DNA of 64,000 bases. Source: Bilabrum cf. latius. Its lineage: Eukaryota. The stretch is taken from assembly GCA_965178125.1 (NCBI GenBank), contig OZ237749.1:1116001-1180000 (forward strand). The letters are read 5' to 3'. Positions within the stretch are counted from its first letter, which is position 1; each line of letters begins with the position of its first letter. A program made the position numbers and the translations under genes. The notes under the pieces are model-generated. The model was not told the DNA's origin. It did not search any database and was given only the letters and a program-made list of their open reading frames with translations. Positions 2,531-64,000 of this stretch are shown piece after piece.

Positions 2531-5500
2531 ATGAGCTAGATTGAGACCAAGGTGACACAGGATGGCGTTATTACCGTGTGCAAGACTGAATCTTGGCGCA
2601 AAGGGGCTCGTAAGTGGGGCCAAGTTGATCTAGGTCCACAGCTTGCAACATCCCGGGTAATTTGGTACCATGAGGACGAGAACAAGTGGTACGTTTGTAG
2701 AGTCAAATGCTGGGCCGCGAACCCGAGCCACAATGTGGAGAAACTGCAGAAGTCGTGGACAGATGGCGGCCAGCAACAGCTCGAGGACCTGGACGGCCAT
2801 CTTCGGTACATCGGAAAGCAAAGCCAAGTGATGCTGATGAAAACAAAGAAGCTTGTTATGCTTGGGGATTGTTCCCAGGACATATTTGGCATGTAGCTGC
2901 CCTTCCAGGCAGAGGGAGAAGCGACAGTTGAAATTGAAGAGCGTCGATCCGTATGCGTACTGGTGCGGCGAGCTGCGATGCTTGAAGTCAGACCGGGGGA
3001 TAGGATGCTGTTTGGTAAGACCGTCGACGGAAATGCCGCGCCTCGGTACTCTAGTCTCCTGTTGCGACCCCTGCGCATTCGAACCGCTGCCCCATCTCGC
3101 TTACCGCAGCTCCGGAGCCGAAGCGCACTGTCCCGGGCGGCATGCACCGTATCGCAACAACCAGAGGCGCAGATTCGGCCACTCTCGCCCAGCTGCGCGC
3201 CGCAGAGAAGCCCAGCCTGCAGCGAACCGTGTCGCAGGTGCGTCGCAGGATCGAGATCCGCAAATCGGACGGGGCCTGCGTGGGCATGCGGGTCACCTGC
3301 GTGCTAGACGGGGCCGTGCCTGCCTCCCTGAGCACCGGGAAGACGGCCATCTTCTGGCAGAGAGGAGAGCAGCAATGCGCCACCGAGGGCACGGTGCCGG
3401 GGGCCCCGCCCGATGCCCACGAGTCCGAAGATGCCTGTGACGAGTACGGCAAGCTGGGCGCGCTGCCTCCCGGGGAGCAGGAGCGGGCGGTAGAGGCAGC
3501 TCTGCGGCAGAAGATGACGCCGGGGATGCAGGAGTGGGCGGGCGAGCTGCTGCAGGAGGCCGCGCAGCAGCCCGAGGAGCAGGGGGGGCAGCTGGCCAGG
3601 GAGGTGCTGGCCCTCCTGCAGGGGGGCGGTGGGGCTGCACGGGGGTCCGCTCCAGTGGTTCCAGTGGCTGGCAGGCGCGGGGTTCCCCTGGAGCTGCCCG
3701 TGCCGATGCCTGAAAGCCAGGCGGGCAAGGAGAGGGCCAGGGGGCCATCTCGACTGAGGGACGCCAGGGTGCCGGGGGACACAGTGCTGGACGTCGTGAC
3801 GCGGGTGAGCCGTGCGCACGGCAATGCGATGCACCTGGCCAGGGAAGAGCTCTGCAGTCCCTTGCCCAGGACCCTGCTGACGGTTGCCAGGCTGCGGCCG
3901 CACAGGGCTGTGGCTGGATTGGTGGGCGTGCGGGGGCTGCCCCTCTCGCTGCGGCCTGGGGCCGAGGCTGAAGCGGGGCTGGAGCAAGAGCCGATGCAAG
4001 GCGAAGATTCGGAGCAAGGGCCGGGGCTGGCCTATGGCAGCGGGGAGCCTGCATCTGGGTAGGGTGGTGCTGGTGCTGGTGCTGGTGCTGGTGCTGGTGC
4101 TGGTGCTGGTGCTGGTGCTGGTGCTGGTGCTGGTGGTGTAATACCAGGTGCTATCGGACCACTGGGCACGCTGGGGCGGGCGCAGCAAAGCGCGGCTACA
4201 GCTAAGGGTGTATTCTTAGCGTGCGCTCCCTTGGACTGGAGGGAGTGCGAGGCGGGGGCCGGGGTGCTTGCTCCCAGTCCAAGCCAGCTGGGTGCGGGGA
4301 CTGCAATTGTGTCGCAGGCAACAGGGGAGAGCGAGAACGTGCCTGGCGCGCCCGTGGTGGACCCTCGGCTGCCGTTGGACGTGGCACAGCAGAGGGCTCT
4401 GCTGGACGGCCCCGCCGTGGGCCAGCTGCAGGCGGCTGTGGAGCGGCTGCGGGGACATGCCAGGCCTACTTTGGCGGGTCAATCATCGTCCTCCTCCTCC
4501 TCCTCCTCATCATCTTCCTCTTCTTCTTCCTCCTCGGGTGTCCAAGTGGGCGCGCAGGCAGCGGCAGAGCATGGGGCAGGGTCTGCGTCTAGGTCGAATG
4601 GTGGCCCACCCCGTACGGGTGCATCGCACGATGGCGCAAGCCGCCGGGTGATGTCCCCGATCGAGGCGGTCAGGCTTGCCTGCGACGCACTCCGTGACCT
4701 GCAGCGCGTGAATCCCCGCGAGCTGTGCTGGCATCCCCCGTCAAGGGACCCGGGGGCGGAGCAGCGCGCGGCGGCTGCTCTGTGGGCCGTGTTCCTCGAG
4801 GCCAGGGCGCTCCTGAAGATGCGGAGGGGCAGGCGAGTGCTCGAGGGGCTGCACGTCGAGGCGGCGCGGCGGCGGCGGGACTTGCTGCGCGGCGAGGAAC
4901 AGCGCACGGGGCGAGCCATGTAGGAGCACGAGAGGAGAGTGCCGACGCAGCTGGAGGCGTTCTTGCAGGCGTGTGCGCTGCTGGCCAAGTGGCACGCTGA
5001 CCTTGGCACCCCGTGCGATGCAGAGCGCAAGGGGGGCATAGGGCTGGAGGACTGGGCTGGAATGGGGAAGGTTGCACTGCGGCAGCATGTGGTCCGTTAG
5101 GACGAGGAGCTCATGCGGTCTCTGAGCGAGCTGCAGGAAACGGGGCTGGGACCCGAGCTGGCTCCCCCGGGAGCGAGGACTGCTGCAGGTGCAGGTATAG
5201 GTGCTGGTGCTGGTGCTGGTGCTGGTGCTGGGGCTGGGGCTGGGGCTGGGGCTGGGGCTGGGGCTGGGGCTGGGGCTGGGGCTGGGGCTGGGGCTGGGGC
5301 TGGGGCTGGTGCTGGTGCTGGTGCTGGTGCTGGTGCTGGTGCTGGTGCTGGTGCTGGTGCTGGTTCAAAGGCAAGCGCTGCCAGCGGATCTAGCAAGGAA
5401 TCGGGGGGAGTAGCAGGGAGTGCTGCGGGCGTATAGGGGGGTTAGGTGGGTGCATCTGCCGCTGCATTGGCTCAGCCCGCCGGTGCTAGTGGGCAGGACA

Positions 5501-5739
5501 CAACTCAGGCGAAGCCGCAGCACCGGAATAAGCAGCAGGATGAGGGTGTGGAGGAAGGGGAGAGGCCGAGCAAGAAACCGAGGGTGCAGCAGTAGTAGCA
5601 GCAGGCGCAGCCGCAGCAGAAGTAGTAGGTCTCTCCACCGGCGGGGGCGAGTGCACCGGGTGGGGACAAGCAACAGACGCAAGCCCCTGCGCCAGCTCCC
5701 GTCCAGCGTGTGGCAGGACAGGTATCTATGGAATCATGA
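2531..5739 (+). CDS. Hypothetical protein with Gly-Ala repeats and a Q-rich C-terminus
   Basis: ATG 2531, intron 3015-3109. ORF fragments 2552, 3142, 4231 and 5113 join in frame through TAG codons (11 counted). Ends TGA 5737-5739. No family recognised. Confidence 0.6.
4063..4137 (+). repeat. Coding (GGTGCT)n hexamer microsatellite encoding Gly-Ala
   Basis: Perfect hexamer run in frame in the 2531-5739 gene. Confidence 0.9.
5200..5364 (+). repeat. Coding (GGTGCT/GGGGCT)n hexamer repeat encoding Gly-Ala
   Basis: About 27 hexamer units; the central block is GGGGCT, flanked by GGTGCT. Confidence 0.9.
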
Positions 5740-58688: not shown

Positions 58689-59120
58689 TAATTGAATAAA
58701 AATGGTGAATTTGTGGCGAAGTGTACTCATTGGAAGGCGTGAGACTCTAAAGCAGACGCCAGACATGCAACGCTCGTGGCCTCACATCGTGCTGTGATCT
58801 CGACAAGTTGTCAAATACATCATCATCCATAGACTTTTATCGTAGTATTCAATAAAGAGAGTAAACAAAGCGATTAAGTTTCTATTTCAGTTAGGAACGG
58901 AGCCGGAAAGATTTTAGTCGTTGTGAACCAGAGAAGGTTCGCCGAGGTGAAGGGCGGTTCGCTCGCCGTGATCGCCATGCTGTGGACGTATATTCAAGGC
59001 TCAAAACCATGCATACATACGGCTATACGAATATCAACGTCTGGTGTACATGCACAAATCCCCGTCAGACCCCAACCATCACGTCCCAGCATGCACCCGT
59101 CTGTGCATGAGGCAACACCT

Positions 59121-60013
59121 TCACTGGCGACCGCTGTAGCGCAGGGGGTTGGAAGACAGCACCGCGATCTTGCTCTTGTCCTTGGCGATGTAGTTGCGCT
59201 TGGGGGCAGCCCACCTCTCGCCGATGTCGTGGTGGTCGCGCATCGGCTTGGCGCGCTCGCTCTTGTCCCACGTCACGTCAGGGGACGTGAAGAGATGGCG
59301 GCTGGACATGTACCCACACCTGCGTGAGTTTGTGACGATGTACTTCAGAATCTGGCAACAATACTCCAGAGCAGTGTAGCACAGAGTGGTATCGGCACTG
59401 CGCTGATGCAGTGATGCGAAGCTAAGAAACCGTAGAAACTTACCAAGCAACGGCGACTGCGCAGCTCGCCAGCACAGGGTATGTCTGCAAATAGTGATAA
59501 AAAGCGAACGCGCCGAAAAATGGTTGATTTTCGGAAGCGTAGATGGCACAGCCATGCCCAGGGAAGAAGCATCGTCAGCGCAACGGAGCCCAGCTTCACG
59601 ACTCGGTGCGCCACGCCCTTGCCGATAGAGAAAACGAGGCTATGATTTTATCAGCATCGTTGCGAACGCGCCTTGCGTAAGGCACTTGGGGGCCCCCAAA
59701 TCGGAAGATGCGGCGTTCCAAGACTATGCCTCGACAGCCACCGTGTAGGCCGAACAGCTTCCAATGTGCTCAGCTTTGGAGGACCTGGTGTGGTCAAATA
59801 TGTCCCATACATTCCAGCCGATTTAATTGCGTTTACATCGCTTCTACACCCGAAACTACAGCTGGTGAGCAAGTGCCGTTTGCACAGCCAAAGAGAATCC
59901 GACCGCACACCCATAACTCAAGTGCTGCAAGGACAGCATGCAATTCTACAACTTACACCGGAATCGCTGAACCAGACGCGGCGGATGTTGTTCGAAACGA
60001 CGCGGCCAGACAT
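59121..60013 (-). CDS. NDUFA4: NDUFA4/B12D family small mitochondrial membrane protein
   Basis: Spliced product MSGRVVSNNIRRVWFSDSG|TYPVLASCAVAVAW|CGYMSSRHLFTSPDVTWDK. Introns 59485-59956 and 59320-59443. Ends TGA. Confidence 0.75.
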
Positions 60014-60241
60014 GCTTGCTTCGGCTTTAAGTTGAGTTGTGTGGACGACCTGCGATTTGGGCTCCGCGATTTGCGACCATTCCATTTTTGATAACGTGTG
60101 CCTTTGATATACAGATCTGCAAGACGTTTGCAAGTGCAAGTGGCAGTCTTCGAATAGAGGCAGTAGACACTTTACTTCGGTGCTATATTAATCTGAGCTA
60201 GTGCCTATTTCCTTCTGTACGGGGATTGTCTGCACGTCATC

Positions 60242-63200
60242 ATGTACATTTTCCTTGCGAAGAAAATAGCTATCCCGAAGCAAGCCAGGCTATCTTGTGT
60301 GGCATGGAACTCAGACTAGGGATGGATAGCATGCGGCGGGGAGGGGCCATTATTAAAAGTGCTGCGGCTAGAGGCGCAGAAAGGTGATGTTCCGATGGCT
60401 AGGGGCATCGCTGCGCCTTCCAGCCTCGGTCTATCTCAAACTCTTGAAGGCCACAAGTGTAAGTACAACATTAGTCCACTGCATCCACGTGTGTTATCCC
60501 ATGATGTGTTATGAATTGATATAGCCCGGCTGCTGTGTGCAAACGCGCTGTCCCGGCGGCTACCAACATCCTGGCTCCACTGGCGATCAGGATTGGTACG
60601 TTTGCTATGCCCCATGCCTCGCAGCTGGCACCGTGCAAGTTGCGGCGTGGAATGCTCTATACAAGAAGCTTACCACAAGCGATTCAACTGGCATGATTAT
60701 AGTGTGGGTGCATCACCGGGGCAAGTGGTTCGAGGAAATGATAAACAACCGCAATACTACCGTTGTAGTGGACATGCGATGGAATTCCGAGGGCAAGGAA
60801 ATCTGCATTGCGTATAGAGATGGCCATGTGATTGTTGGTGGTGTCAAGGGGAACAGGCTGTGGGGCAAGAATCTTGGCTACGAGCTTAGTAAGGTCGTGT
60901 GGTCGCCCGACTGCCGCACGCTAGTGTTTGTCACTGCTGATTCGCAAGTCCACACGTACACCCGCGAGGGCATGCGCACTGGAGAGGTTCGCCTGGCTGG
61001 AGTGAAGCCCGGGGCAGGCGCTGGTTCCAGTGACCCTGTCGCCGCCCTTGATTGGTACGACGGCGCGGAGGGCTACGAGGACCCGAGCGCGCCCTCGCTG
61101 GCCATCGCCTTCGAGAGCGGGCGGATGCAGATGATGCGCAGCACGACGGATGAAGAACCCATGCTCGTAGAAACCGGTTTGCGGATTCGATAGGTGACTT
61201 GGAATTGCGCTGGCACGGTCTTGGCTGTGGCTGGGGTCCCGGCAGGGGCAGGGGCAGGCGCACCCGGAGCTGCTGCGGGCGGTGCTGCAGCCAGTGACAA
61301 CACGGGCCCTCCCTCCGTCGTGCAGTTTTATTCGCCCTATGGTCAGCATGTGCGCACGCTGCGAGTCCCCGGAGAGGTCAAGTCTCTGTCGTGGGAGGGT
61401 GGCGGCTTGCGGCTGGCCATGGCGGTGGGGCACCACGTGTACTTCGCCAACGTGCGGCCGGACTACAAGTGGGCCGTCTTTGGAGACACGGTGGTGTACG
61501 CCTATGCGCGCCCGGACAGGGCCGAGCAGTGCCTCGTGTTCTGGGACACGGAGAGCGGGCAGCGGCACGAAAAATTCCTCAAGCACCTGCTGGGCGTGCA
61601 TGCTGCGCCTGACGGAGACCACTGTCTCGTGGTCACTCGTGCTGATGACGGATCGGCGGCAGCTTCCATGAAAGGCGGACTCGTCAGCGGACTGGGCGTG
61701 GCAGGCTCTGCAGCCGCGGGCCAGTTCCTTCTTGTCCTCTTCGACGCGATCGGCAGTCCGGTGGAGACACGCTTCCTGCGCTGGCGGCCACAGCACATAT
61801 CTGTCACCAAGACTCACGTGATCGCCGCCTCGGAGAGTACGGTGTACGTCTGGCAGTACCGGTCTGGACTGGATGCGAGTGGAGCTGGGGCTGGCTCGGC
61901 CTCTGCAGCGGTAGGCCACAGCATGGCGCAGGCCTCTTCGTCCGGAGAAGGTGGCCCTGGGGCAGGGGCGGGGGCGGCCTCGAGCGGAGCTGGCGGCAGC
62001 GCTCTGCGTCTAAGGGGTGTCCGGGAGCGGTACTTCCACATCGACGACGCCATGGGCCTCGACGCAGCCGGCAAGGCCTCGGGGGGGCGGGATGCGTCTG
62101 CAGCAGCCGCAGGGGGTGGAGGCTTGCGGCCGGCAGGGTATGACACGAAGGATCCGGTGAGCTGCGTCACCGCCAGCAGGTAGTGCATGCTAGTGGGTCG
62201 GGCATCAGGCGCGGTGTCAAGGTACACCCTGCCGCACCTGGTGCAGGATGCAGAGTACAGGCTGCGCAAGCCAGCAGCCAGGCTGGCTCTCAACTGCGAC
62301 AGTACAGTGTTCAGTGTGGTGGACGACTCGGGCTTCCTGTCTTTCTTCGACACGAGGAGGCACCGGGTGGACCCGTCCACCGGACAGTCCGTGGAAGGCG
62401 AGCAGCTCCCCGAGGAGCGCAAGGATGCGTGGGCCATGCGGTGGGCCGAGGACTCCCCGGAGCTGTTCGCGTCGATGGAGAAAACCAAGATGATTGTGTA
62501 CAGGGACTGCAAGCCAGGTGACCCGGTGCTGTCCAGCGGCTACCTGGGGCGGTTCAGGGATCTCCGGGTGCAGGTGGCCATGCTGGACGACGTGATGGTG
62601 GAGCCGGACCTGGCCAAGGTGAGTGACTGCGTGCTCTTCCACGAGACCAAGTCGCTCGAGGAGGCGTAGGTGCTCATCGAGTCAGCGTCGCCGCAGAAAG
62701 CCGTGCAGTACATCCAGGAACATTCGCACCCCAGGCTGTGGCGGCTGCTGGCCGAGGGCGCCCTGGAGCGGCTCGATTTCGCGACTGCAGAGCAGGCCTT
62801 TGTGGGCGGGCAAGACTATGCCGGGATCTAGCTCGTGAAGCGGTTGCGGCGGCTAGGTCATAACGCCAAGCAGAAGGCCGAGGTGCACGTGCACTTTGGC
62901 AGGTTTCAGGACGCAGAGGACGCCTACCGCGGGATGGACAGGCTGGATCTCGCGATCGAGATGCGGGCCAGGGTGGGTGACTGGGCTCGAGCACTGCAGC
63001 TCGCATCGGAGGGAGAAGCAGACGGGGTGGATCGGATTGTGGCTGAGTGCAGGCGCCGCATAGGGGACCAGCTGATGGACCAGCAGCAGTGGACCAGGGC
63101 CGCGGAGGAGCTGGCCAAGACGGATGACAAAGCTGCGCTCATCAAGTGCTACCGCGCCATGGACGACTTTGACGCGCTGGCCGGCCTCGTGGAGGAACTC

Positions 63201-64000
63201 CCGGATGAGTCGCCGCTGCTGGTGGAGCTCGGGAGGGCGCTGCAGTCCGCGGGTGTGGCCCAGCCAGCCGTGGAGGCTCTGCTCAAGGCGGGCTAGCCGC
63301 AGGCAGCCGTGGACTGCTGCGTGCTGCTCAACGAATGGGACAAGGCCATCGAGCTGGCGCAGACGCATGACTTCCCGCAGGTGGAGTCTTTGCTCAACAA
63401 GTACGCCGCCCGGCTCCTGGCCAAGGGTCAGGTGATCGCCGCCATCGAGCTGTACCGCAAGGCTGGCAGACATGCAGAGGCTGCCCACTTGCTAGCCCAG
63501 CTCGCGGAGAGTTCCTTGGCTGCTCGCAAGTCCCCGCTCCGTGCGAAGAAGTTGTTCGTGCTGGCCGCACTGGAGGTGGAGAGCTTCCGGCAGCAGGCGG
63601 CGGACAAGGCCGTCGAGGATGCTACTGCTAAGGGCGGGGGCGCGGTCACTGCGGCAACCGCCACTGCCGCCATGACGGCCACCATGATGGACACCATGCT
63701 GCGGACTAATGCCACGCTCTCGGCGTCCACTGTCGGGGGCGAGCGAGCAGCGAAGCGGGCCGCGCGCACGCTGGACAACGCCTGGCACGGAGCCGAGGCT
63801 CTGCACTTCTGGATGCTTGGGCAGCGGTAGCTGTACGCGCGAGAGTTTGATGCGGCGATGGCGACTGCGGCAAGGCTTGCGGCACTGTACGAGGACGTGC
63901 TCCCTGCGAGGGACGTGCACAGCCTGCTGGCCCTCGCTGCCTTCAGAGCCGGTTTCTTCGGTCTTGCCTCCAGAGCATTCATCCGACTTGAAGCCGTGGC
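60242..64000 (+). CDS. WDR35: WDR35/IFT121 intraflagellar transport complex A subunit (3' partial)
   Basis: [62 protein letters not shown]. Intron 60459-60624. TAGs at 60317, 61191, 62181, 62667, 62829, 63294 and 63828. Runs off the window end. Confidence 0.95.

Follow-up and report, generated by a model that had tools for sequence, protein, structure and literature searches.

Nuclear genetic codes that read UAG alone as glutamine have been reported from a fornicate and from three ciliates; in three of the four organisms, the tRNA was reportedly not found (PMC5304391, PMC9161772, PMC11687900). In the fornicate Iotanema spirale, UAG encodes Gln and UAA remains a stop; a tRNA-Gln(CUA) was predicted there and reportedly not identified (PMC5304391, PMC9161772). 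The ciliates Hartmannula sinica, Trochilia petrani and Protocruzia tuzeti read UAG as Gln only, with UAG in most genes and reportedly no dual meaning; their dominant stop is UAA (86.9–98.3%), and a suppressor tRNA was not detected in H. sinica and T. petrani (PMC11687900). In Tetrahymena, hexamitids and Ulvophyceae, both UAR codons encode Gln, with UAG read via a tRNA(CUA) (PMC11687900), and in a further code UAG is assigned to Glu (PMC10553269).

Here, we describe the same codon change as in Iotanema in a small flagellate, probably a stramenopile, in whose genome a gene for tRNA(CUA) is found. Unlike in the UAG-only ciliates, the dominant stop is TGA (29/36 gene ends) in a genome of ~62% GC, and a suppressor tRNA gene is present. 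Unlike in the UAR code, UAA is a stop (7/36 ends) and was never encountered in frame within the long genes examined; the Glu code is not the code here. From the sequence, we assign this code to the already described UAG-only Gln codes of the Iotanema type, as a case from a new GC-rich stramenopile lineage that, unlike the earlier ones, comes with a candidate tRNA. Our main reading, to which we assign a probability of about 0.92, is that nuclear UAG encodes Gln throughout, with UAA and UGA as stops, and that it would be read by a dedicated tRNA(CUA) in the presence of an altered eRF1 that would act weakly on UAG.

The analysis started from a 64,000-nt stretch of one contig (the window, 61.5% GC) of a 48.6-Mb assembly in 111 contigs with a GC content of about 62%. 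The gene for WDR35/IFT121 starts at an ATG at 60242 on the plus strand of this 64-kb window, requires a single intron (Table 1) and leaves the window in frame, ending at a TGA at the window-equivalent position 64677, 677 bases beyond, for a total of 1423 aa. Its product matches PF24797, PF23390, PF23387, PF25170 and PF25768 (two beta-propellers, then TPR repeats), and the top match among 101 homologues shares 47% identity over 100% of the query, so that both orthology and domain content identify the gene. Seven TAG codons lie in frame inside the window and two further ones beyond it; no TAA or TGA is found in frame in the windowed coding sequence.

Table 1. Coordinates of the WDR35/IFT121 gene, its in-frame TAG codons and the tRNA(CUA) gene (window positions unless a contig is named; residue counts refer to homologues aligned at the site)
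Feature	Position	Strand	Evidence or alignment
Exon 1	60242..60458	+	PF24797 positions 1-71; PDB alignments
Intron, 166-nt, GT..AG	60459..60624	+	predicted; skipped exactly in contigs of runs X1, X2, X3
Exon 2	60625..64000	+	Pfam, homologues; one X1 contig spans 60625-64000 with 0 differences
TAG codon 26	60317..60319	+	Q 72/91 homologues; five of five displayed WDR35 PDB chains have Q
TAG codon 262, variable column	61191..61193	+	S 44, Q 18 of 99; commonest non-vertebrate residue Q, 18/52
TAG codon 592, non-Gln column	62181..62183	+	K 52, Q 1 of 98
TAG codon 754, conserved Arg column (counter-example)	62667..62669	+	R 87/97
TAG codon 808, non-vertebrate Gln	62829..62831	+	Q 44, E 42 of 100; Q in 43/52 non-vertebrates and 5/6 nearest relatives
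TAG codon 963, vertebrate Gln	63294..63296	+	D 38, Q 36 of 97; Q in 34/49 vertebrates vs 2/52 others; D in 6/6 nearest relatives
TAG codon 1141, best-conserved Gln	63828..63830	+	Q 92/98; Q in 6/6 nearest relatives
tRNA, anticodon CUA	G000:C23:907607-907679	minus	tRNA search; T run follows

The TAGs are present and unedited in what we take to be transcripts. Contigs of the runs X1–X3 (two studies) are treated as such because GT-AG introns are skipped in them; the runs themselves are RNA by guess, as no sequence set matching the stretch is recorded as RNA. Spliced contigs show 0 differences from the genome at six TAGs of WDR35 and over the bulk of ATG9, and the X1 contigs carry a single G>C change in 18 kb. 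The sequences of X4 derive from a relative, mostly 90–99% alike; among the differences listed (40 of 479), the 37 classified in coding sequence affect no Gln codon. Repair of TAG in the mRNA (U-to-C editing, yielding CAG, or A-to-I editing, yielding a Trp codon) would thus have to hide in minority variants, which assembled contigs drop, so that the comparison speaks for the major transcript sequence. We consider such repair, or an origin of the TAGs in assembly errors or pseudogene lesions, exceedingly improbable: Trp ranks last of 20 residues in the profile test described below, 75 of 109 predicted coding segments carry TAG, essential genes among them, and a cognate tRNA gene is present. Head-to-head with WDR35, a short spliced transcript with deep coverage runs on the minus strand at window 59100-60036, with introns at about 59318-59441 and 59485-59956.

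The original prediction had placed the TAGs at 60317, 63294 and 63828 on Gln residues of human WDR35. PDB 8fgw_A, a solved vertebrate WDR35 chain that we take to be the human protein, bears this out, with Gln at these three sites and G, K, R and K at the other four. Column counts over the 101 homologues (ungapped rows only) uphold the conservation claimed for 60317 and 63828; at 63294 that claim does not extend beyond a mainly vertebrate Gln, with Asp elsewhere. In the orthologue alignment proposed as a check, Gln leads at 60317 and 63828, is shared with Glu at 62829 and with Asp at 63294, and seldom occurs at 62181 or 62667; 62829 is an additional Gln-type site outside the three named. CAG codons of the same gene are equally mixed: some occupy Arg, Lys or Tyr columns, such as the one at 63081 (R 95).

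How far three sites discriminate between residues can be expressed as the probability that at least 3 of 7 TAGs fall on primate Gln, which is 0.30 if TAG behaves as a Gln codon, 0.051 for Glu, 0.037 for Lys, 0.0008 for pooled non-Gln codons and no more than 0.0003 for Trp, Leu or Tyr. The statement that the three sites fit Gln and not Trp, Leu, Tyr or Glu therefore stands well for the first three residues and is too strong for Glu, which, like Lys, is disfavoured only ~6–8 fold. Over eight aligned WDR35 TAG sites, Gln is favoured by 11 log units; when eight Glu (GAG) sites are drawn at random, Gln is called in 24 of 1000 draws. WDR35 by itself thus makes the Gln reading likely without establishing it; the assignment was nevertheless right, and it is settled by 190 aligned sites, by codon usage at gene ends and by the tRNA(CUA) gene.

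We extended the column analysis to 18 dynein heavy-chain loci of the genome together with WDR35, using the best 120 of 2387 dynein homologues. The dynein frames hold 368 TAGs, most of them in poorly aligned parts; a site was counted if at least 50 homologues aligned to it, which yielded n = 190, with unaligned TAGs left out. In columns conserved to at least 70%, 68 TAG sites fall on Q in 38 cases, E in 12, R in 3 and Y or W in none. Ordinary Gln codons give a similar picture in such columns (CAG, Q 393 and E 85 of 830; CAA, Q 48 and E 16 of 109), and reference codons are GAG, E 756/1100, and TAC, Y 497/716. A profile likelihood, which in calibration called 61 of 61 known codons correctly, places Gln 252 log units over the next residue and Trp last of 20; this margin is overstated because paralogous dynein sites share columns and are not independent. 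Log-likelihood differences between all-Gln and an alternative residue at all sites are 93.5 for Glu, 134.5 for Ser, 221 for Leu and 266 for Tyr, leaving TAG as Glu, Ser, Leu or Tyr unsupported. In a second set of eight dynein loci taken alone, the result was repeated (Q 17/29). The TAG at position 44 of eRF1 aligns with Q in 116 of 118 homologues, and a TAG in USP14 aligns with Q.

The share of Glu columns raises the question of whether UAG is ambiguous, being translated mostly as Gln and in a minority of cases as Glu (or as mischarged Tyr, given C1:G72, U35 and A36 in the tRNA). Glu occupies 12 of 68 conserved TAG columns versus 101 of 939 for CAG plus CAA, mixture fits yield a maximum-likelihood Glu fraction of 0.12 (95% range 0 to 0.29), and the acceptor stem of tRNA(CUA) is Tyr-like. 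The Glu excess, however, falls short of significance (over all sites, Fisher P 0.19), and the inspected TAGs on Glu columns mostly correspond to Gln in Cafeteria or to Gln encoded by ordinary CAG or CAA codons in the organism's own paralogues. The Tyr fraction has its maximum likelihood at 0 with an upper bound of 0.02, although low-level mischarging would be invisible in such columns, and Lys is bounded at 5%. We consider ambiguous decoding very unlikely and retain a uniform Gln assignment.

Homology-free tests were not counted as support: neighbour enrichment ranked Gln weakly on top (1.29 vs 1.25 for K; calibration 39/61), and flank tests did not pick Gln (calibration 20/61 and 31/61). TAGs in SPAG16/PF20 were uninformative, aligning with A, A, H, K and with A, L, M, E in two chains. 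TAG accounts for 8.8% and 9.8% of Gln codons in the 109 predicted coding segments (440 kb of contigs C15 and C23), and its share drops from 14.1% to 3.5% with rising codon bias (rho -0.54).

The window is gene-dense, and many of its long frames are open only when TAG is taken as a sense codon. TAG-containing genes between window positions 253 and 58766 encode peptidase C78, SPAG16/PF20-like, DNase II, UTP15, FF/WW and C2/WW proteins, USP14, a TTL family member, a HEAT protein, peptidase M16 and ATG9; in the window genes for RPL3, dyskerin and riboflavin synthase, no in-frame TAG is found. A plus-strand ORF at window 3142-5739 has TAGs within a poly-Gln tract close to its end, which is anecdotal support. 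The dynein at G000:C10:10001-30000 contains 60 TAGs in 4618 codons, versus 4–26 in the first ten dyneins.

Gene ends reveal which triplets terminate. All 18 dyneins end directly after their last conserved motif, in TGA (15) or TAA (3). Among 21 Ras-family GTPase ends examined of 65 matches, 18 carry the Cys prenylation motif with TGA (14) or TAA (4) after it, and the three without the motif were excluded from the count. Pooled, 36 motif-defined ends comprise TGA 29, TAA 7 and TAG 0 (95% upper bound about 8%); the eRF1 gene ends in TAA. TAA as a sense codon is contradicted, since it ends 7 of 36 genes and occurs 0 times in frame in WDR35, and dynein frames of 4300–6100 codons are read with TAA as a stop.

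These data also bear on a dual meaning of the Blastocrithidia or Condylostoma type, in which UAG would be Gln within genes and a stop near mRNA 3' ends. Intact T32 and E55 of eRF1 would be compatible with this, as would a WDR35 TAG that lies five codons upstream of the TGA, past the conserved end. TAG occurs in the last 10 codons at 8 of 1090 positions versus about 4.4 expected from the interior rate of 0.40%, an excess that is not significant (P about 0.08, calculated by hand), and the end cannot be called for one of the 21 GTPases (L172), which contains TAGs and lacks the Cys motif. Against a dual meaning, TAG is found at 0 of the 36 motif-defined ends, with which a share under about 8% is compatible, and no depletion of TAG ahead of true stops was detected. 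The first stop-like triplet within 15 codons (109 segments) is TGA in 60 cases, TAA in 6 and TAG in 4, which matches the interior TAG rate. We regard a second role of UAG as a stop as very improbable, on a par with ambiguous decoding, and read UAG as Gln regardless of its position in the gene.

The candidate reader of UAG is a single-copy tRNA(CUA) gene (Table 1); among seven pattern matches, no other CUA tRNA was found. The family search scored 63 of 780 candidates and addressed intronless tRNAs only. In metagenomes, the sole match to its D arm plus anticodon stem is another tRNA(CUA), on sequence L154 of a related organism. That gene is syntenic, has diverged flanks and one compensatory pair change (C6:G67 to U6:A67), and adjoins an orthologous ORF carrying in-frame TAGs. 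Because a compensated orthologue is maintained in synteny near a TAG-containing ORF, tRNA(CUA) is conserved and the code is probably shared with the L154 organism.

The two halves of this tRNA resemble different isotypes. Its D arm is closest to the genome's own tRNA-Gln(UUG) (11/13), and a Gln(UUG) identity is also found in 12 of 12 viral tRNAs whose D arm and anticodon stem equal its own; since these are near-identical, they amount to about one observation. A viral origin of tRNA(CUA) is unsupported, as the viral acceptor and T stems differ, and no match was found in prokaryote genomes. The acceptor stem equals that of the own tRNA-Tyr at 12 of 14 bases and 6 of 7 pairs, a level of 12/14 that 3 of 358 background pairs also reach, and C1:G72 occurs in tRNA(CUA) and tRNA-Tyr only among the 22 anticodon classes of the genome. 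The discriminator is G73, as in the own Gln(UUG), and the variable region has 5 nt. Eukaryotic Tyr identity elements are C1:G72 and A73 (PMC9976931), and those of E. coli Gln include G73 and U35 (PMC1483225).

A pure tRNA-Tyr origin would be suggested by 20 of 24 matching bases in the acceptor plus anticodon stems, the top of 224 cross-isotype pairs. We lowered this explanation because (i) the regions were picked with the data already in view, (ii) viral Gln tRNAs are equal on the anticodon stem (8/10) and match the D arm in full, and (iii) the acceptor of the L154 relative is less Tyr-like. A tentative reconstruction, which we hold to be rather doubtful, is that tRNA(CUA) is a mosaic of a tRNA-Tyr acceptor and 5-nt variable region on Gln-type D and anticodon arms, in which G73 would block TyrRS; in that case, the code would have passed through, or been built from, a tyrosine amber suppressor switched to Gln, in a GC-rich genome with Thr32 of eRF1 intact. 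If this were true, the UAG reader would be more than the tRNA-Gln(CUG) with a single anticodon substitution that is predicted for codes of this kind, and the switch would have occurred where prior loss of TAG is unlikely, the genome being GC-rich.

Several other tRNA genes were observed in passing. A second match to the GTA-anticodon tRNA pattern lies at G000:C14:1156700-1156729. Nuclear tRNA-Ile genes (L015, L048; G000:C32, C4) have the anticodon GAT, with Ala and Thr using A34 (AGC, AGT); G34 in tRNA-Ile is unusual among eukaryotes. A multi-copy tRNA-Met(CAT) type (L029, L039, L043, L051-L053) has its acceptor and D arm in common with a neighbouring tRNA-Pro(TGG), a likeness hinting at anticodon switching in this genome.

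The genome has one eRF1 gene (L001:1068-2957, G000:C35), with two TAGs in the N domain at Q44 and L69. It was compared with 118 homologues, namely the best 120 of 5498 minus two long forms. Whereas Iotanema eRF1 carries T32G (PMC5304391), here T32 is kept together with G29A, N30D, S60V, K130H and L69 to TAG (Gln). G29A, which rests on a predicted splice, and N30D, I35V, S60V and K130H are present in 0 of the 118 homologues; T32, E55, NIKS, S70 and C127 are retained. L69A has been linked to UAG read-through (PMC5304391); Gln at 69 is not established as a cause, because PDB 8ip8 has it too. With T32, E55, NIKS and C127 kept and Gln69 seen elsewhere, no known UAG-specific lesion is present. The eRF1 TAGs lie in the stop-recognition domain; two TAGs in this gene imply that termination at UAG would cut eRF1 synthesis, a possible feedback.

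In the mechanism that we propose, tRNA(CUA) would be expressed and would pair with UAG and not with UAA. GlnRS, the sequence of which (L175) is ordinary against solved structures, would charge it with Gln, with G73 keeping TyrRS off, and the eRF1 changes next to the GTS loop, within TASNIKS and at residue 69 would make the factor a poor competitor for UAG. UAG would thereby serve as a minor Gln codon (about 9%), shunned by genes with strong codon bias.

The organism is probably a Cafeteria-related bicosoecid, judging from sequence comparisons. In a WDR35 tree it is sister to Cafeteria roenbergensis (SH-aLRT 100 under LG+G4 and 99 under LG+C20; one gene, with both rows compositionally biased), and the best dynein match is Cafeteria. 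The mitochondrial contig (G000:C111, L054-L057; 24.6% GC) encodes a TCA-anticodon tRNA and has in-frame TGA, indicating that TGA is read as Trp; all 24 of its ORFs of at least 100 aa end in TAA (34,000 of 38,401 bases read). C. roenbergensis likewise reads mitochondrial UGA as Trp and is GC-rich, and the accessible part of its genome report names a non-standard code for the mitochondrion only (PMC6972860). The WDR35 (1480 aa) and dynein (4857 aa) sequences deposited for it run without interruption, in contrast to the TAG-interrupted genes here; given these intact proteins and the mitochondrion-only code change in that part of the report, its nuclear code is most likely standard. A second 18S rRNA gene (G000:C95:6099-7900, L005) on a 17.9-kb contig is 77–83% identical to the C12 rDNA array; it is presumably dinoflagellate-like and probably stems from a contaminant or co-cultured organism. 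Contig G000:C34:1-300 (L137) starts with a TTAGGG-type telomere array.

A nuclear code change in a stramenopile was not found in the largely open-access literature searched, PMC11412368, PMC12153298, PMC12152300 and PMC13768787 included; since the matching runs date from 2023–2025, such a report may exist. Few codes separate UAG from UAA. Codon capture driven by AT content is a poor explanation here because, at ~62% GC and with TGA as the main stop, the genome is unlike the AT-rich ciliate and trypanosomatid cases. One assembly combines codon evidence, a candidate tRNA and eRF1, alongside a well-studied relative, Cafeteria, with an apparently standard code; with such data, the long-standing question of how UAG alone gets freed becomes directly testable. 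In practical terms, annotation with the standard code would truncate about two thirds of the genes (75/109 segments sampled), and related marine flagellates may have been missed or mis-annotated.
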